64,000 bases of DNA from an uncultured Acidobacteriota bacterium. GTDB taxonomy: Bacteria; Acidobacteriota; Vicinamibacteria; Vicinamibacterales; CAVVIG01. The notes under the pieces were generated by a model. That model ran no database searches. It saw only the letters and a program-made list of their open reading frames with translations, and was not told where the DNA came from. The position numbers and the translations under genes are program-made. Positions 55,814-64,000 of this stretch are shown here, piece after piece. Location of the stretch: NCBI GenBank assembly GCA_963757355.1, contig CAVWRG010000003.1, positions 1,541,120-1,605,119 of the forward strand, given 5' to 3'. Every line of letters begins with the position of its first letter. Within the stretch, counting starts at the first letter, position 1.

Positions 55814-55885
55814 GGGCGGTTAGCTCAGTGGTAGAGCACCGGCTTTACACGCCGGCTGTCACAGGTTCGAATCCTGTACCGCCCA
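55814..55885 (+). tRNA. tRNA-Val (anticodon TAC)
   Basis: GGGCGGT TA GCTC AGTGGTA GAGC A CCGGC TTTACAC GCCGG CTGTC ACAGG TTCGAAT CCTGT ACCGCCC A. No encoded CCA. Confidence 0.9.
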
Positions 55886-56005
55886 CTAAAAGTACGCAAC
55901 TGGCAGTTGGTGATTTGGTCAGTTGGTGAATTGGTGATTCGAATGCACCGATTCGCTGATTCACGAGTTCGCCGATTCGCCAACGACGGATGCACGTTCC
56001 AAATC

Positions 56006-56273
<268 letters not shown>

Positions 56274-56281
56274 AAGTCATA

Positions 56282-56620
56282 CTAGGTGTTGGGGATAGCG
56301 GATTTCGCATCCGCCGTCTCCAACATTTCTCCACGACCGCGGGGCACTCCCGAGCAATCGAGCAACCGAATCGCCATGTCCAGTGCAGCGGGACTGAGGT
56401 GCATGTACCGCTGTGTCGTTGAGAGATCCTTGTGCCCTGCCAAATCTTGGATGGCTCTGGCAGGCGCACCCCGCATGGATAGATGCGAACAGAATGTGCG
56501 GCGCAACCGATGGACGCCACTGTCACCGAGCTGAGCTCGTCGTGCCGCCCGCTCGACGTGATGTTTCACCATGTCCGCCGAAAGCGAAGCACAACAGGCG
56601 GGTATGACGTACTCAGCCAA
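56282..56620 (-). pseudogene. tyrosine recombinase/integrase, C-terminal catalytic fragment only
   Basis: ..GVHRLRRTFCSHLSMRGAPARAIQDLAGHKDLSTTQRYMHLSP (HxLR box, GH, catalytic Tyr). The frame is closed by TAG about 50 nt upstream. No box I Arg or N-terminal SAM-like domain is present. Confidence 0.75.
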
Positions 56621-57338
56621 TCTCGGACTGCCGCAACTTCTGCTTGTCTTGGCCGTGATCCTCGGGATCTACGGATTCATGCGACTGCGTTGATGCGAGA
56701 GTGGAAAGCAGCCCAATTGGCGGGCTAACAAAACGAGCTACCGATGGTAGTAAACGAGGATCGGTTTCGGGGAACGGTCGGCTCGGATCGGTTCGCCTTT
56801 CGACAGGCGTATCCGGAAAGGGCCAGAATCGCCCCGATCATCAGCACGGCTACAAGAAGGCGCCGCATGATTCGGATTATAGCCCACAGGCGACGGGCCT
56901 TTCAGGGGGAATGAGATGACGAAACGCTGGGAGCGCTCACACGCGAACGGTTGGACCGCAACGGTCCAGGCCGACGGTGAGTTCTTCAACACGTCGGCGC
57001 ACGAAGTCGGCGTTCCCGCCGCGCAGGCATGTCAGTCAGGGCATCGTTGACTCACGCCTGGCGCAACAGGTTGCCGATGGGAGAGTGCCAGCGCACGATT
57101 GTCAGTGCAGAGGGTGGGTTGAGCGAATGGAGACTATCCGTTGACGCGCGTCGAGGAATTCACGAGCCGTGATTTGACAAGGCACATTTACCCTTAACAC
57201 TGGATCGAGCCAACTCAAGGGCATTCGATCAGGGGATGTCGATCCCTGTGACAATCCGACGCTGATTCCGCTTGCGCCTGCGTTGCGTGTGGTTGCGGCT
57301 GCAGGCCGCGATCTAATATCCCACAAAGGGAGGTGACG

Positions 57339-57992
57339 ATGAGACTTGTCTTCAAAAAGGGTTTTGGGCTCGATACGATACCCTCTGACATCGCGATGTG
57401 GTTGCTAGAGCTTGAGAGCAGCACATACGCGTTTGTCGCGGATCAGGTGCCCGTTTCGATTTCCAGAGGGACCTTCGGCAACACTGACCAAGAACGTAAT
57501 TCAATCAATCAGTTCGTCTCAACGAGTCGTCGGCCATTCGGGCACAAGATTCAAACGTTGGATGTCACCTTTGAGATGGACGGGGCCATTCCTGAGGCCA
57601 TTAAGTCAGGCCAACATCAAATCGGTTCCGCCGATGCATTTGTCGAACCTTACATCGATCCCGGTTTTCACGCGGTGAGAGCGTTTGTCGAGACTTATCG
57701 GGACTGCAAATATCTCAGATATCGTGGCCAAGAACGTTGGACAAACCACCAAACTCTACTCCCACGAGTCACCGAGCAGGAATTCAGGACGTTGTTGTTT
57801 TACACCCTCGATGTAGGCGATGGTGAACCGTATGTCGGGTCTTTCAGCGACGGGAGGCTGAAGGTTAGCAACTTCTTAGGTAGTGATTTTACTGAGCAAC
57901 TTCGGCGCTTAAGCATCCTGTGCCAGCGGTGCGAAAGTTCATTGAAGAAGCGTGGGAACGTCTGTTTGATGAAGATTTCTCTGGTGCGGTAA
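57339..57992 (+). CDS. hypothetical protein (island gene 1), no recognisable family
   Basis: ATG preceded by GGGAGGTG Shine-Dalgarno. 217 aa. The last 30 or so codons overlap the next ORF in another frame and look non-native (..LCQRCESSLKKRGNVCLMKISLVR). Confidence 0.55.
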   Translation: MRLVFKKGFGLDTIPSDIAMWLLELESSTYAFVADQVPVSISRGTFGNTDQERNSINQFVSTSRRPFGHKIQTLDVTFEMDGAIPEAIKSGQHQIGSADAFVEPYIDPGFHAVRAFVETYRDCKYLRYRGQERWTNHQTLLPRVTEQEFRTLLFYTLDVGDGEPYVGSFSDGRLKVSNFLGSDFTEQLRRLSILCQRCESSLKKRGNVCLMKISLVR

Positions 57993-58294
57993 TTTACTCG
58001 GCTATTGCCATCGAGCGAGCGATGACCCGATTGTTGCGCAAAGAACTTGTGAACCGGGCCGTTGGGACAGCCTCGCAGATCGGGAAGGTCATCGAGGATA
58101 CCAGTAATCGATCGCTTTGCACCGTAGTGTTGGGTCTCCTTGGAATCGCGGATGACGGGTTGCGCCAACGGATGGTCAGTCTGTTTGAGCTCAGGAATTC
58201 GTTGGCTCACGGTCAGAAGTCAAACGTTCATCGTGAGGAGGCTGAGGCATCGATTCAGACATCTGAATCATTCCTTACGATTGCCTGGACCTAA
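57920..58294 (+). CDS. HEPN-like domain protein (Rx4H motif), either stand-alone or the frameshifted C-terminus of island gene 1
   Basis: About 124 aa, all-helical pattern: FIEEAWERLFDEDFSGAVIYSAIAIERAMTRLL.. then LFELRNSLAHGQ (R-N-S-L-A-H, i.e. Rx4H). GTG start. The frame is open from 57896. Confidence 0.55.
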   Translation: MPAVRKFIEEAWERLFDEDFSGAVIYSAIAIERAMTRLLRKELVNRAVGTASQIGKVIEDTSNRSLCTVVLGLLGIADDGLRQRMVSLFELRNSLAHGQKSNVHREEAEASIQTSESFLTIAWT

Positions 58295-58610
58295 GTCAAC
58301 GCGGGGCCTCGCAGATTCCCATCAGACATCGAACTCTCAATGCTCCTGCCACATACGAGACCACGCTCCCTTTGGTGTCACAGGGAGCGGCGACGGACAT
58401 GTGCCGGGACTGGCGGCACGCACGCAGGCGACAGGAGCGGACGACTGCGACAGTTGTGGGAGTGGAGCCCGCCTTTGAGTTGATCGAGGTGGCTAAAGAG
58501 GAACGCGGATATTTCGCGGACAGGTAACGATAAACCTCTCAGCTGCTCTCACTTGCAGAAGCACCTCCGGTTAGCAACCCGTTGTGCATCTACGCTATAG
58601 TCGTCTCGCC

Positions 58611-59879
58611 ATGGCAAAGCCTTTACAGCGACTGATCGTTTTTGTATCGGGCACCAGTGAGGCAGAGGCCGAGAAGGCTGCACTGAGGCGAATTGTCGAT
58701 GACATCAATCGGCGCGTGGAAAAGACGCACGGTATCACTCTGAGAGTGGTGGGTTGGCCGGACGATGGGCGACCGGGTGTTAGCACTGATCCTCAAGCAG
58801 AACTGAATCGCCAGTTTTCAGACTTCGACGTCTACATCGGAATGCTAGGCTCGAAGTTCGGATCACCCACGCCGAGGGCCGGGTCTGGCACAGAGGAGGA
58901 GTTCGAGTCGGCAATGCGCCGTTTTCAGAATGATTCAACTTCCGTACGGGTTCTCTTTTATTTCATGCGGACCGCTGCAGACCCATATTCGATCGACGCG
59001 GATCAGTTAAAAAGGGTCCAGCAGTTTCGGGAAACTTTGCCCTCCCGTGGCGTGGTCTATCGAGACTTCCACGATACCGCTAGCTTCACGAATCTTGTGC
59101 AGGACCACCTCTACTCAATCATAGAGGACGATTGGCGAGGTGATCGTTGGTCTGCTGTTGGTTCGGTACCCAGTCTCACTGGTGCCGTTCGTGACACCGA
59201 ACACCTGACCCACGACGGTGCGGGTCCCGCTGGTGCTTCCGAAGTTGATGTCAGTCTATCGAAGGAAGACGGCGAAGACGAATCTGGGTTTTTGGACCAT
59301 GTAGTGGCTTTCCACGAGGCAGTTGCTGTATTTACGGCGATTGTGGGAGAGATGCGCCATGACATGGACCGGATCAATGAACAGGTCCGCGCTCGCGCGA
59401 CAGAAGGCACCACGCTGAACGAAGAATTTAAGAGTGTCAAACATGTAGGAGGCAGTAGGGCGCAGCAGGAATTTGCCTCTAAGGCACGCATGAATGTCGA
59501 TGGGGCGGCAGCCAATCTCGACGATTTCGCTAGCGCGACGGCCGGGAATCTTGAGAAGTTCAAAGACAGTAATCGCTCGATGTTTGGCAGTTTGAGGGCG
59601 GGTTGGGGATCCGGATCAGAATTTGTGACTGAGCAGAACAGGAACGACAACGTGCGTGCGCTCCGCCAGTTGATTGCAGTCATCGAGAAAACAGGCGAGA
59701 GCATGACCGCTTTTCAGGCTAGCGTGAGCCGATTGCCTCTGTTGACGGGAAAAATCAAGCGAGCGCGTCGGCGGACAGCGCAGGTGTTGGGCGAGTTGAT
59801 AGCCGAATTTGCGTTGTCAGCCAATGAAGCACAGCGGATCGTTGATGAAATGGAGGGCGGTGTGAGTCCCGTTTCGTGA
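58611..59879 (+). CDS. DUF4062/TIR-like N-terminal domain protein with long helical C-terminal region (island gene 3)
   Basis: RLIVFVSGTSEAEAEKAALRRIVDDINR..FDVYIGMLGSKFGSPTP.AGSGTEEEFESAMR..VRVLFYF parallels the DUF4062 pattern VFISST..E.R.A...AI....D.yigIiG.RYGS....G.S.TE.EY..A. Residues from about 230 to 422 are helix-rich with no recognisable motif. Confidence 0.6.
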   Translation: MAKPLQRLIVFVSGTSEAEAEKAALRRIVDDINRRVEKTHGITLRVVGWPDDGRPGVSTDPQAELNRQFSDFDVYIGMLGSKFGSPTPRAGSGTEEEFESAMRRFQNDSTSVRVLFYFMRTAADPYSIDADQLKRVQQFRETLPSRGVVYRDFHDTASFTNLVQDHLYSIIEDDWRGDRWSAVGSVPSLTGAVRDTEHLTHDGAGPAGASEVDVSLSKEDGEDESGFLDHVVAFHEAVAVFTAIVGEMRHDMDRINEQVRARATEGTTLNEEFKSVKHVGGSRAQQEFASKARMNVDGAAANLDDFASATAGNLEKFKDSNRSMFGSLRAGWGSGSEFVTEQNRNDNVRALRQLIAVIEKTGESMTAFQASVSRLPLLTGKIKRARRRTAQVLGELIAEFALSANEAQRIVDEMEGGVSPVS

Positions 59880-60041
59880 AAGGCGACTGCGTGGATCGGC
59901 TGCCCAGGATATGTCCGCGTTTTGTCCGTAGGCTATCTTCGCCTTCCCGCCAAGTCACGCCCGAACGCAGACTAAGAATTGGCCAATTGTATAGGTGACA
60001 ATTAGGAGGGGCTGGTGCCCCACAACGTGCTCAGACGGCGT

Positions 60042-63000
60042 TCACTCGTACGAATTAGCAATGATGTTAAGCACCTTGTCGAGGTACTGGCCGACCTGCT
60101 TCGCGTCCGTCTGCGATCGAAGTTCGTACGAGATCATGTTGAACCAGTCGATTCGTGTCCTTGGACGCCGTCTGACCAATTCATCCAGCACGACTTGCCT
60201 CAGAAGGCCATCTCCCGAACCTGACTCGGGAAACGCCGCCTTGATGTCCGTGTCCCTCAGGTCGACGAGCTGCTGGCGAAGGGAATCAACCCGCTGCGCC
60301 CTCTCCAATTCCTTGCGGTAATCGGCGTCGCTGTTCAGCAAATCGTCGATCCGTTTGAGGAGTCGCTTGATTTCCGTGCTTCGACTCTTGAACCAGTCCG
60401 TTGACCAGATGCGGTGAATCTTCCAGCCCTGGTTCTCAAGAATTTCCTGTCGAAGGCGGTCGCGGTCGCGAGCAGAGCGTCCGGAATGGTAGCTTGCGCC
60501 GTCGCACTCGATTCCCAACAGGTACACGCCGGGCTTCGCAGGATGACGGACGCCAATGTCGATAAAGAAACCGGCTACGCCTACTTCTGGGACGACCTCG
60601 AATCCCTTTTCCCTGAGCACGGCGCCCACAGCGCGCTCAAAATCGTTCGACGACTGCCGCCCGCCATCGTCAGCGGCTTCCAGGATGCCGGTACGCGCGA
60701 ACGTCAGATACTGCTTGAAGGCGCGAAGGCCCCAGGCGCTGCCGCTATGGACCTGAATCTTTTCGGGGTCAATCGAGCTAAAGACTTCCGTCCTCTTCTT
60801 CGACCGCGTGAAAAGCACGTTGAGCCGTCGATGTCCATTCGGGCCGTTGATCGGGCCGAAGCGCTGGTATTGGTTTCCTTTTGCATCCGGCCCGTAGGTC
60901 GCCGAAATAAAGATCACGTCACGCTCATCGCCCTGAACGTTCTCGAGGTTCTTGATAAATAGCGGCTCCGACCCGCTCTCCATTCGTTCCTGATAAGCCA
61001 GCGCGAACGGCTCGGTCGTCAATCGGCGGTCGAGAAGGTCCTCGATCAGTTCTCGTTGCTCATAATTGAGCGCGACGACGCCGAGAGATTCATTCGGCCG
61101 ATTGTGCATGTGATCCAGAACAGCATCGACGACGGCCTCCGCCTCGGGCATATTGCGACGCTCGTCAAACACGCCTCGCGGAACGTGGTGATATTTGACG
61201 CCGAGGCTCGGGGATTCGTGATATGCGGACGGAAAGATGATCAGGTCTCCCTGATAGAACTCGCGATTGGAGAAGGCAATGAGGCTGTGGTGTCTCGACC
61301 GATAGTGCCACCGAAGCCGTCGGACAGGTTGGTACATCGTGCTGGCAATGTCGAGAATGCTTTCGCCTTCCTCTATTGCCGTCCGCTCGTCTTCATCCTC
61401 AAGGTCGTCATTATCGAAGGTGACTCTCTGGAAGAAATTTGTCGGCGGCAGCTGTTTTGGGTCGCCGACGATGACCAGCTGGCCACCCCTTGCGATAGAG
61501 CCGATGGCGTCCTCCGGCTTGAGCTGCGATGCCTCGTCCATGACGACGAGGTCAAAACGCAGTCTCTCCGGAATGAGGTACTGGGCTACCGAGAGCGGCC
61601 CCATCATGAAGCAGGGCTTCATGGCCTGGAGTGCGGTTGCAGACCGGCGCACCAGTTGTCGAATGGGAATGTGGCGTTTCTGCTTGCTGATCTCGTGCGT
61701 GATGAGCGCAAGCTCGCTCCAGCCTTTGACGGGACCGCTTTGATGACCGTATGGGATTTTGCGACGGTCGATGATGGCGGCGGCGCGTTCGCGATACAGT
61801 CGGATCGCTTCCTTGTCTGCCTTGGCGAACTGCTCCCGGACTTGGTCCTGGGTGGTGCCGCTGAAACCAAACAGATCGGCATGATCGGCGAAGGCGTATC
61901 GCGCGAGCGTGTTGTAAAAGACGAACTTGAAAGCGGTAGGAAGATGGTCTGGTTCGATGTGCCCGGCGTCAGCAAGACTCGTCAGCTTGTCGAGGCCGCG
62001 GCCTGCTCCGTCGGCTCGCGAGCGGATGAAGTGAAGCCATTGCGCCAGTTCGTCGCGGTTTTCGAGCGCGTGTGCCGCTCTCTTGGAAACATCCTCAAGT
62101 CTGTCGCCCTCATCGGCATGCCAGTCCAAGGATGACGAGCGGCTGCGAATGTCCTGGCGGCATTCCGCGATATCACGTGCGGCCTGCGCCGCTTGTTCAA
62201 GCCATTGAGACAACTGACGCAGGCGCGGCTCGTACTCGTCAGAGAGAAGCCAATCCGTCGCCGTCCCAGGAAGTGCGCTCTTCGCCAGGCGCTCGGCAAA
62301 ACGAACGGCGGCTTCAACCGGTCTCAGGTCGCTATCGATCTCGCAGTAGGAGTTGCCTAACATGTTGCGAACGTGCGCGTGAGCATCGATGCGGGCGATA
62401 CTCGCGCGATGACTCTCCGCCGTCTTCAACAGGCCGCCGATAGAGCTGATGGGAAGATCCGCCTTCAGGTCGGCCATCAGAAGACCCGCGATGGTTTCCT
62501 CCAGAAATGTGTTCGCCTCTTTCAACGCGTTCCGCAAGTCATCCAATGATCTTGGCGATGAGCCGTTCGGCCGCGCAAGCATCGGAAGGTCCAGGACGGC
62601 GCTGTGGAGGTCGTCAAGCGTCGCGCGATTGCTCTGATGCCCAGGCAGCGCCGCGCTGACCGCGTTGAGGCGCTCCGTTCTGGTCTTCAGAAGAAGATCT
62701 CGCAGCGCAACAGAAGAGTCATCATTGTCGGGGAGCAGAGCAAAGACTTGCTGGTACCAAGCGACGATGACTTGCCACTCATTCCATCTGGTCTGGCTCC
62801 CCTTGAAATGCGCTCCAAGAAGCTGCTGGCATCCCGCATCAGCGTCAAAGTCAGTCTGGGCCTGCAGGTGGTCGGCGATGGCCCGCAGGTGTTGCGCCAT
62901 AGATTTCCGCGATGCTTTCGCCGCGTGTCGCGCCAGAGCTTTGTAGGCGCGGCGGCCACTTCGATAGTCGCGGCCGAACAATCGCTGCCAGATGCCCGCG

Positions 63001-64000
63001 CCTTCAATCGCGGCTGCATGAGCGCGAAGTCGGACCGCGTCAGTATCCGCGAGCACCGACAGGTTGAAAGATTCGTCGAGCTTCCGATGTTCTTGCTCCA
63101 GTTCGCGCGTTCTGGCGGCGGCATCCTCGATGACTCGACCCGCGCCGTCCGACTCAAGGTTTGGTGTCCTTAAGTGAAACGCCTCGAAGGGTGCGCTTTC
63201 GAGCGCGCGCAGGCAGTCAAGAAGCCGTCGGATGTCTTGGGTGTCGAACGACACCTGAATTCCGAGAAGCGCGGTGAGGGCGGCAAGACAACTTTCTGCT
63301 TTTGAAAGAAGCTTCTCCGCCGCCCGGCCCCGTTCGAGGTCGTGGCGAAGCCGAAGGGAGTCGCTGCCCTCATGACCGCGGGCGGTCAGGACCGCGACCA
63401 TCTGGGCGAGGAATTCCCCGACATCCTTTCTCAGGAGCGGAGTGGAATTGCCAGCTGTGGTGGCAGCGGCAAGCGCCTGCCGTGTTGTGGAGGCATTCTC
63501 CACCGCTTCCATGAAGTCCAGCAGCGCAGCACGTGCGCGCGCATCCCGGCAAGGTACGAGGACATGTGACGGAAGCGGTTCGTTCACATCGGGCAACATG
63601 GTCAAAAGATCCGTGGCCATGTTGAGACCGTGCAAGGTGCAGGGCACTGCCACACCGACGTCCGCCAATGCCCGCTGCACGGGCGCGGCGTTTCCCACAG
63701 ATGAAACGAACCCCTCCAACAGGTCGCAGATGCGCTCCTGATCTTCAAAGCTGAGGGTCGCATTAATCCATGCCCACGGGTGCAGCTCAAGGCTCGAACA
63801 AGCCCGCAAAACGCCGCCGAGGTGCTGGGCATGTACGGCCAGGAAGTGCTCCGTTTGTGCGACGTCGGTGGGCGTAAATTGAATAACTGTCGCCAGGAGC
63901 AGCTTCTCCACGAGCGAGCGGTCAAACCGCAGTTCCTGGTACGCAACATCGCGCGCCCACAGAATGTCGAACACCGTCGCGTTGAAAGGCTGAAGCTCCT
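60042..64000 (-). CDS. large SF1 (Upf1/DNA2-like) helicase fused to Vsr/DUF559-type endonuclease and DUF3320-like tail; N-terminus beyond window
   Basis: Helicase motifs DLVVMDEASQ (II), VIVGDPKQLPP (III), LRWHYRSRHHSLIAFSN, VQGDERDVIFIS, RLNVLFTRSKKR (VI). Nuclease LLGIECDGASYHSGRSARDRDRLRQEILENQGWKIHRIWSTDWF. The frame remains open at the window edge, so Walker A is not seen. Confidence 0.85.
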   Translation of the reverse strand, partial: ELQPFNATVFDILWARDVAYQELRFDRSLVEKLLLATVIQFTPTDVAQTEHFLAVHAQHLGGVLRACSSLELHPWAWINATLSFEDQERICDLLEGFVSSVGNAAPVQRALADVGVAVPCTLHGLNMATDLLTMLPDVNEPLPSHVLVPCRDARARAALLDFMEAVENASTTRQALAAATTAGNSTPLLRKDVGEFLAQMVAVLTARGHEGSDSLRLRHDLERGRAAEKLLSKAESCLAALTALLGIQVSFDTQDIRRLLDCLRALESAPFEAFHLRTPNLESDGAGRVIEDAAARTRELEQEHRKLDESFNLSVLADTDAVRLRAHAAAIEGAGIWQRLFGRDYRSGRRAYKALARHAAKASRKSMAQHLRAIADHLQAQTDFDADAGCQQLLGAHFKGSQTRWNEWQVIVAWYQQVFALLPDNDDSSVALRDLLLKTRTERLNAVSAALPGHQSNRATLDDLHSAVLDLPMLARPNGSSPRSLDDLRNALKEANTFLEETIAGLLMADLKADLPISSIGGLLKTAESHRASIARIDAHAHVRNMLGNSYCEIDSDLRPVEAAVRFAERLAKSALPGTATDWLLSDEYEPRLRQLSQWLEQAAQAARDIAECRQDIRSRSSSLDWHADEGDRLEDVSKRAAHALENRDELAQWLHFIRSRADGAGRGLDKLTSLADAGHIEPDHLPTAFKFVFYNTLARYAFADHADLFGFSGTTQDQVREQFAKADKEAIRLYRERAAAIIDRRKIPYGHQSGPVKGWSELALITHEISKQKRHIPIRQLVRRSATALQAMKPCFMMGPLSVAQYLIPERLRFDLVVMDEASQLKPEDAIGSIARGGQLVIVGDPKQLPPTNFFQRVTFDNDDLEDEDERTAIEEGESILDIASTMYQPVRRLRWHYRSRHHSLIAFSNREFYQGDLIIFPSAYHESPSLGVKYHHVPRGVFDERRNMPEAEAVVDAVLDHMHNRPNESLGVVALNYEQRELIEDLLDRRLTTEPFALAYQERMESGSEPLFIKNLENVQGDERDVIFISATYGPDAKGNQYQRFGPINGPNGHRRLNVLFTRSKKRTEVFSSIDPEKIQVHSGSAWGLRAFKQYLTFARTGILEAADDGGRQSSNDFERAVGAVLREKGFEVVPEVGVAGFFIDIGVRHPAKPGVYLLGIECDGASYHSGRSARDRDRLRQEILENQGWKIHRIWSTDWFKSRSTEIKRLLKRIDDLLNSDADYRKELERAQRVDSLRQQLVDLRDTDIKAAFPESGSGDGLLRQVVLDELVRRRPRTRIDWFNMISYELRSQTDAKQVGQYLDKVLNIIANSYE

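Follow-up and report, generated by a model that had tools for sequence, protein, structure and literature searches.

The window analysed here, a 64,000-nt stretch of DNA from an uncultured Acidobacteriota bacterium (contig CAVWRG010000003.1, positions 1,541,120 to 1,605,119 of the forward strand), ends within an island of ~10.2 kb that is bordered on either side by repeats of the tRNA-Asp 3' end and extends ~2.4 kb past the window. It is likely that this is a decayed island whose cargo consists of three independent single-gene conflict modules, brought side by side through accumulation at an integration hotspot. These are a helicase-nuclease of the Hhe family, a DUF4062 protein with a helical tail, and a gene of a small family, here called N-domain-HEPN, that is broken by a frameshift. 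The biochemical activities named below are predictions from sequence. In the sequence-only reading of the same DNA, three co-oriented plus-strand genes, coding for an unknown protein, a HEPN protein and a DUF4062/TIR-like protein, were proposed to form an undescribed multi-gene defence module, alone or together with the convergent helicase. The proposed three-gene module is not supported, because its components do not co-occur at the other loci compared and because two of the three "genes" turned out to be one frameshifted gene.

Probable Independence of the Cargo Genes

On the DUF4062 side, 80 genomic loci were fetched, 35 of which, besides the island, carry a full-length homologue. A tblastn search of these 35 loci revealed no homologue of either ORF A or ORF B, the two open reading frames (ORFs) that precede the DUF4062 gene in the island, even at E=10. 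Similarly, all-against-all clustering of the ORFs within 5 kb of the 35 homologues disclosed no shared neighbour family at E<1e-6. The 121 ORFs flanking DUF4062 homologues were housekeeping genes mixed with assorted defence genes, the latter including MADS, AriA, PD-Lambda-2_B, ThsB, BrxL, and methyltransferases.

On the N-domain-HEPN side, 12 loci were available, most of them on contigs of 1–3 kb; a metagenome scan with an alignment of six sequences yielded eight loci, mostly short. A hidden Markov model (HMM) of the DUF4062 family, run over the 12 N-domain-HEPN loci, detected only the positive control, the Salmonella plasmid locus L087. The 12 loci have no gene in common except the N-domain-HEPN gene itself. 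Among the genes around it are those of a TIR_2 protein, of a Pepco-domain protein, and of a further protein with a terminal Rx4H motif; this suggests conflict contexts but no fixed partner. Thus, the co-occurrence check that had been proposed along with the module, once run, found the component genes together at none of the 35 + 12 other loci.

Island at the tRNA-Asp Gene

The integration target is the tRNA-Asp (GTC) gene at 56006..56082 on the plus strand, recognised by ARAGORN and by Rfam (RF00005, 75.4 bits). A repeat search found three direct plus-strand copies of its 3' end, i.e. of the attachment (att) core, at 56058-56090, 56152-56184, and 56246-56278. The copies start 94 nt apart (56058, 56152, 56246), and the repeated part corresponds to the last 25–33 nt of the tRNA. 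The first two belong to 94-nt units standing in tandem, 99% identical to each other; each unit comprises the tRNA 3' end and 69 nt of flank, and the two units precede the third copy. This tandem array suggests earlier integration/excision or duplication events at a tRNA-Asp hotspot.

Immediately past the third copy the base composition changes, the GC content being 0.658 in positions 1-56000 vs. 0.575 in 56279-64000. The GC content of third codon positions (GC3) is 0.72–0.83 in four upstream flanking genes vs. 0.56 in ORFs A and B and 0.58 in the DUF4062 gene; the integrase fragment has a GC3 of 0.64 and the helicase gene 0.69. The earlier description of a compositionally foreign island at tRNA-Asp, with three att copies, a composition change after the third, and cargo of the conflict-system type, is therefore well founded, given the GC and GC3 drop, the att repeats, and the integrase remnant.

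The remnant lies next to the third att copy, at 56282..56620 on the minus strand. It is the C-terminal catalytic fragment of a tyrosine integrase, 112 aa long, which matches PF00589 (8e-15) at profile positions 105-169 of 172 and, in NCBIfam, the C-termini of Xer/integron-integrase models only. The N-terminal two-thirds of the integrase are missing, and the minus-strand ORFs upstream of the fragment have no Pfam match to supply them. With only 112 aa of its integrase left, the element is probably immobile. The following ~0.7 kb (56621..57338) contains small orphan ORFs only, with no family or RNA match. Both the truncated integrase and the orphan ORFs had been correctly noticed from the sequence.

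The distal border was located with L001, a 10,189-nt contig retrieved by an exact-protein look-up, which matches the window at 99.96% identity from 56262 onward. Past the helicase gene it carries only a 63-aa ORF and a 119-aa ORF before the contig end. A fourth copy of the att core, GGGTTCGAGTCCCGTC, closes the contig at 10174-10189, equivalent to ~66.4 kb in window coordinates. The size of the island follows from this, because L001 continues beyond the helicase gene as far as an att copy. The final gene ahead of the distal copy (L001 9591-9950, plus strand, window-equivalent ~65.85–66.2 kb) encodes the 119-aa protein, which has a signal-peptide-like N-terminus and no family match.

With other integrative islands at tRNA genes, the element shares tRNA 3'-end repeats at both borders, an adjoining tyrosine integrase, a composition shift, and defence cargo. 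It differs in that the integrase is cut to 112 aa and that two extra 94-nt att units stand in tandem. The window would hold the proximal 7.7 kb of an island inserted into the tRNA-Asp 3' end, the tandem att remnants would record earlier insertion and excision events, and the cargo genes would be adjacent only through the accumulation of defence genes in hotspots.

N-Domain-HEPN Gene

ORF A (57339..57992, plus strand) and ORF B (57908..58294, plus strand, in the -1 frame) are, judged by homology to the protein P0095 and by the family alignment, the N-terminal domain half and the HEPN half of one gene, which a -1 frameshift near 57906-57920 has divided. ORF B first offers a start codon, GTG, at 57920; counted from there (57920-58294), the ORF overlaps ORF A by 73 nt in a different frame. 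P0095 is a single polypeptide of 364 aa that covers both ORFs: residues 1-189 of ORF A are 45% identical to its residues 36-222, and residues 1-121 of ORF B are 55% identical to its residues 230-350. The homology of ORF A with intact relatives stops near 57906, and its last ~28 codons make up an out-of-frame tail.

A word-based homology search returned one relative of ORF A (P0095) and none of ORF B. An exhaustive HMMER profile search was needed to expose the family beyond P0095, and it yielded 99 proteins. About 17 of them, 308–344 aa long, carry both halves in single polypeptides, and it is because of these homologues that A and B are assigned to one gene. The "unknown protein" previously counted as a separate gene thus seems to be the N-terminal half of the N-domain-HEPN gene, which leaves two plus-strand genes instead of three. 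Programmed -1 frameshifting was rejected as an explanation, since the 57896-57992 overlap lacks any X XXY YYZ heptamer and the place of the shift varies from lineage to lineage. The split site, CGGCGCTTAAGCATCC, is neither a homopolymer nor a slippery heptamer.

The Rx4H motif of the HEPN half, noted earlier and confirmed here, reads LRNSLAH and lies at 58193-58210 in ORF B. The R and H of this motif are nearly invariant, R321 and H326 being at least 90% conserved in the family alignment. ORF B scores 17.8 bits with Pfam HEPN_RiboL-PSP, below the gathering cut-off of 28.4. HEPN families of Pfam give weak matches in 10 of 19 family members (the best being 8e-6), none of which reaches the cut-off. 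ORF A has no match in Pfam or PADLOC, and no Pfam, PADLOC or NCBIfam model covers the family, which has ~100 representatives among 1.8 billion protein clusters. An AlphaFold model of the family was obtained with a predicted local distance difference test score (pLDDT) of 81. Its best Foldseek matches are HEPN domains (2q00, 3o10, 1ufb, 2hsb, 4nqf, and HEPN/MNT toxins), with a probability of up to 1.0 and a target-normalised template modelling score of 0.5–0.7. The N-terminal domain, ~200 aa of beta-sheet and a long helix, has no sequence match and no fold match in Foldseek.

The family shares a C-terminal helical domain with near-invariant Rx4H with the RNases of the HEPN superfamily (RiboL-PSP-HEPN, Swt1-like, MAE_28990-like, and the HEPN/MNT toxins). 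The motif and the fold matches agree with the hallmark of that superfamily, an Rx4-6H motif terminating one helix of a four-helix up-down bundle. It differs from them in that no Pfam model matches at the cut-off, in the N-terminal domain without a match, and in the frameshift of the present copy. Unlike the case of the HEPN/MNT toxins, no MNT or other conserved partner was found at N-domain-HEPN loci. An intact protein of ~320 aa may be a sensor-coupled RNase toxin. The copy in the present genome, interrupted at the domain junction by a -1 frameshift, is most likely inactive.

Splits near the domain junction recur elsewhere in the family (L094 800-840, P0104, P0111, P0113, P0114, P0119), and stand-alone HEPN-only ORFs of 115–160 aa are found as well (P0117, P0120-P0124, P0132, P0143). 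Such recurrent splitting may mean that a toxic gene often decays into a pseudogene or that the gene has undergone fission repeatedly. At the locus of P0095, a convergent gene (L083 1801-2262, minus strand) without a Pfam match ends in a second Rx4H motif, KLRNTTGHN, so that two different HEPN-like genes stand tail to tail. At another locus a 125-aa Pepco-domain (PF24393) gene (L084 344-721, plus strand) lies 50 nt upstream of P0098 in the same orientation; this is a single instance.

DUF4062 Protein

The second plus-strand gene (58611..59879) encodes a protein of 422 aa with a DUF4062 domain, predicted to be a TIR-like NADase, and a four-helix tail. PF13271 matches it with 25.4 bits (cut-off 24.7), and many of its homologues carry precomputed PF13271. 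There are 93 homologues, forming a family of proteins ~420 aa long; they are mostly 40–54% identical over the full length and come mostly from metagenome-assembled genomes (MAGs) of Acidobacteriota-type and other soil or sediment bacteria. The PADLOC profile PDC-S60 matches the N-terminal ~165 residues (4.6e-31, profile positions 7-169 of 906), which indicates a shared domain, not membership, as the ~900-aa full architecture of PDC-S60 is absent.

The motif GSGTEEEF at 58881-58904 is invariant and contains the putative catalytic Glu97 (58899-58901). In an alignment of 36 sequences, E97, F98, and W175 are invariant, and F11 is at least 90% conserved. The AlphaFold2 model has an overall pLDDT of 82. 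Residues 1-175 form an alpha/beta domain in which five strands and five helices follow one another in beta-alpha order (pLDDT around 90), residues 186-222 are disordered, and residues 227-414 fold into four long helices. A variable acidic linker of ~40 residues separates the N-terminal domain from the conserved helical tail, which has conserved motifs of its own, VGGSRAQQ and PALTGKFKRARRRAA. The Glu of GTEEEF and the helical tail, both pointed out from the sequence before, are in full agreement with these data.

Two bioRxiv preprints of 2026 demonstrated by experiment that the DUF4062 domain is a TIR-like NADase and that its fusion with a C-terminal auxiliary region constitutes a single-gene abortive-infection defence (10.64898/2026.05.01.722283, 10.64898/2026.06.25.731849). 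In Swarozyc (KpSwz), the catalytic residue is E97, the DUF4062 domain has five strands and five helices, the auxiliary domain is of the helix-turn-helix (HTH)/winged type with a portal-binding hairpin, and the activator is the phage portal (10.64898/2026.05.01.722283). Evangelion (Eva01) has a conserved F11 and E87-Y88, and its auxiliary region is required and highly diversified (10.64898/2026.06.25.731849).

The protein of the island shares with KpSwz an N-terminal DUF4062 domain, modelled with five strands and five helices, and a conserved Glu aligning with E97. With Eva01 it shares the N-terminal aromatic F11 and a Glu-aromatic motif, E97-F98 in this case. Common to it and both systems are the C-terminal auxiliary region and a stand-alone gene of patchy distribution that is sometimes found in defence islands. 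When a profile of the N-terminal domain was compared with the sequences of the PDB, the top two matches, both weak, were KpSwz (E=0.17) and human TEP1 (E=0.22). The KpSwz match spans query positions 43-105 and aligns Glu97 with the mutated E97A position of chain 10wc_A. The full-length profile matched designed helical bundles only, KpSwz not being matched at E<=1. Foldseek with the full-length model returned only dynamin or coiled-coil matches and generic flavodoxin-like ones, the latter at E>0.01, a result that says little about TIR-likeness.

Judged by its sequence, the protein probably belongs to the Evangelion/Swarozyc class: a DUF4062 core, a Glu-aromatic pair, F11, an auxiliary tail, and a stand-alone gene are all present. 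It does not appear to be Swarozyc sensu stricto, i.e. a KpSwz orthologue, since it has no HTH/winged auxiliary domain; in its place are the disordered acidic linker and the four long helices, which show no sequence match to that domain. By analogy with Swarozyc and Evangelion, the C-terminal four-helix region would keep the TIR-like domain switched off until a phage cue is sensed. Glu97 would then hydrolyse NAD+ and the infected cell would abort.

Several homologues deserve mention in their own right. In a Vicinamibacterales MAG (L008 10031-12592), a homologue with the tail is broken by a ~1.5-kb insertion with a 445-aa transposase-like ORF. In a Bryobacterales MAG, two paralogues with the tail (L029 1894-2994 and 4991-6319) lie 2 kb apart on the same strand. 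Plasmid-borne DUF4062 proteins match over the first ~170 residues only, with 24–29% identity. On the Salmonella Senftenberg plasmid NZ_LN868944.1 (L087 5980-6552), the DUF4062 gene directly follows a block of phage terminase and head genes with a portal gene among them. An IS3 transposase truncates this DUF4062 gene, so that L087 was used as a positive control only.

Helicase-Nuclease of the Hhe Family

On the opposite strand, convergent with the two plus-strand genes, lies a gene (60042..64000, minus strand) that PADLOC, NCBIfam, and Pfam assign to a superfamily 1 (SF1), Upf1-like helicase fused to a Vsr-like MTES_1575 nuclease of the Hhe family. The reading frame is open to base 64000, and the window holds the C-terminal 1319 codons; the N-terminal ~440 aa, with DUF4011 and Walker A, lie beyond it. 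The full-length copy in L001 is an intact ORF of 1761 aa. The earlier description of a convergent protein of more than 1300 aa that combines an SF1 helicase with a Vsr-like endonuclease has therefore proved accurate.

The helicase core matches AAA_11, AAA_12, AAA_19, and AAA_30 and contains GPPGTGKS as Walker A and VVMDEASQ as motif II. The nuclease MTES_1575/DUF559 of the window copy matches PF18741 with 8.5e-36. In the full-length copy, Pfam detects DUF4011 (PF13195, 3.2e-38), a split AAA_11 with Walker A, AAA_12, and MTES_1575. With PADLOC, the part in the window gives 5.7e-211 for Hhe and 1.7e-257 for PDC-S37, and the full-length protein 1083 and 1283 bits, respectively. The NCBIfam model NF042953 (Hhe_antiphage) matches the L001 copy end to end (residues 15-1756 on profile positions 2-1797) with a sub-equivalog score of 1554.5 bits.

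Hhe, from the SF1 Upf1-like clade, is accepted as a single-gene helicase-nuclease defence, and phage protection is known for Hhe of E. coli. With Hhe (HheA; NF042953; PADLOC Hhe and PDC-S37) the protein shares the colinear order of DUF4011, AAA_11 with Walker A, AAA_12, and the MTES_1575 nuclease, as well as the single gene without a co-oriented partner. It differs in its sub-equivalog score, which marks a divergent homologue from a high-GC soil-type bacterium, and in that PDC-S37 scores slightly above Hhe. By homology the helicase-nuclease is thus a divergent Hhe homologue, a member of a named defence family. Like Hhe, it would act as a single polypeptide, responding to phage DNA metabolism and cleaving nucleic acid.

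The "undescribed" status proposed for the cargo was lost with these two assignments, as the helicase falls into the Hhe family and DUF4062 with an auxiliary region is published as a single-gene defence. The annotation checks that had been suggested for the island gave a divided answer. PADLOC named the helicase (Hhe/PDC-S37) and the N-terminus of the DUF4062 protein (PDC-S60) and found nothing for ORF A, and Foldseek retrieved HEPN domains for the N-domain-HEPN model and no TIR structures for the DUF4062 protein.

Alternative Explanations

Several observations speak against three independent defence modules as described above. The NF042953 score of the helicase is below the equivalog cut-off of 2000. 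The sequence match of the DUF4062 family to KpSwz is weak (E=0.17), the Foldseek search of the PDB with the full-length model gave neither TIR structures nor KpSwz entries, and the tail is unlike the HTH/winged auxiliary domain of KpSwz. Defence context is seen at only part of the DUF4062 loci. The absence of partners at the N-domain-HEPN loci is weakly sampled owing to the short contigs (1–3 kb), and the frameshift may have split the gene into two products that both work. One may ask whether the plus-strand genes, possibly with the helicase, nevertheless make up one new cooperative sensor/effector system. They are co-oriented and adjacent in a defence-type island, with an effector-like domain in each. 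Yet they do not co-occur at the 35 DUF4062 or the 12 N-domain-HEPN loci, a 290-nt gap separates ORF B from the DUF4062 gene, ORFs A and B are one frameshifted gene, the family of each component occurs alone, and the helicase is a convergent, self-sufficient Hhe homologue; such a system is very improbable. It is also improbable that the cargo is not anti-phage at all but serves addiction or competition on behalf of the mobile element, or housekeeping, e.g. NAD or RNA metabolism. Many DUF4062 homologues do lie among housekeeping genes, and the N-domain-HEPN family has no PADLOC match. However, the strongest matches of the helicase and the DUF4062 protein are experimentally validated defence families, the island context points the same way, and relatives of the N-domain-HEPN gene adjoin TIR, Pepco, and other Rx4H genes.

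Two further alternatives concern the split of the N-domain-HEPN gene. It may represent a functional fission into a free N-domain protein and a free 124-aa HEPN RNase, a sensor/antitoxin and toxin pair. Splits near the same junction occur in independent lineages (L094/P0111, P0104 with a separate downstream ORF, P0113, P0114), the HEPN-only ORFs listed above exist, and the whole HEPN domain is kept in the B frame. The junction sequence is identical in three assemblies of the population, which favours fission and at the same time argues against a sequencing or assembly artefact. Against fission, ORFs A and B share 73 nt in different frames, the earliest start available to ORF B is a GTG without an evident ribosome-binding site, ORF A and several N-only relatives end in out-of-frame-looking tails, the shift positions vary between lineages as for random inactivation, and many of the short matches may be contig fragments. 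On balance, fission seems unlikely, albeit less so than the artefact, which we consider improbable. In the latter case an intact N-domain-HEPN protein of ~330 aa would be encoded. The noisy assembly L002 of the same population has 26 gaps, which suggests long-read data, and L001, being 99.96% identical to the window, may share its sample. But the site CGGCGCTTAAGCATCC is not a homopolymer, the three assemblies agree exactly at the junction, the noisy one included, and the neighbouring 1761-aa ORF is intact in L001.

With the decayed island of three independent modules as the preferred reading, a bolder version of it can be put forward as a tentative possibility only. The N-domain-HEPN family may represent an abortive-infection RNase not described before, encoded by a single gene and fitted with a sensor domain of a new type; its splitting would then reflect selection against a toxic effector or else repeated fission into a two-component pair of toxin and regulator, and the four-helix tail of the DUF4062 protein may be a new trigger-sensing module.

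Significance

The outcome is mainly corrective: an apparent new three-gene system is a mosaic of stand-alone genes, two of which can be named by current defence annotation. The new material is modest, namely new members or lineages of kinds already known, together with one rare, unstudied family of HEPN proteins. The class of DUF4062 NADase defences is extended to an Acidobacteriota-type lineage whose helical auxiliary domain is conserved and of a different kind, and this distinct tail makes the lineage a candidate for a different phage trigger. Furthermore, a small uncharacterised HEPN family has been defined, which has a novel N-terminal domain, is often found broken, and is testable as a toxic effector.

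Other Features of the Window

Promoter and terminator scans gave results at chance level. The Rfam scan found two tRNAs and no other RNA match, the tRNA besides tRNA-Asp being a tRNA-Val at 55814-55886. The segment 18000-36000 of the window has a GC content of 0.61–0.645, slightly below that of the remaining non-island window (0.65–0.70).

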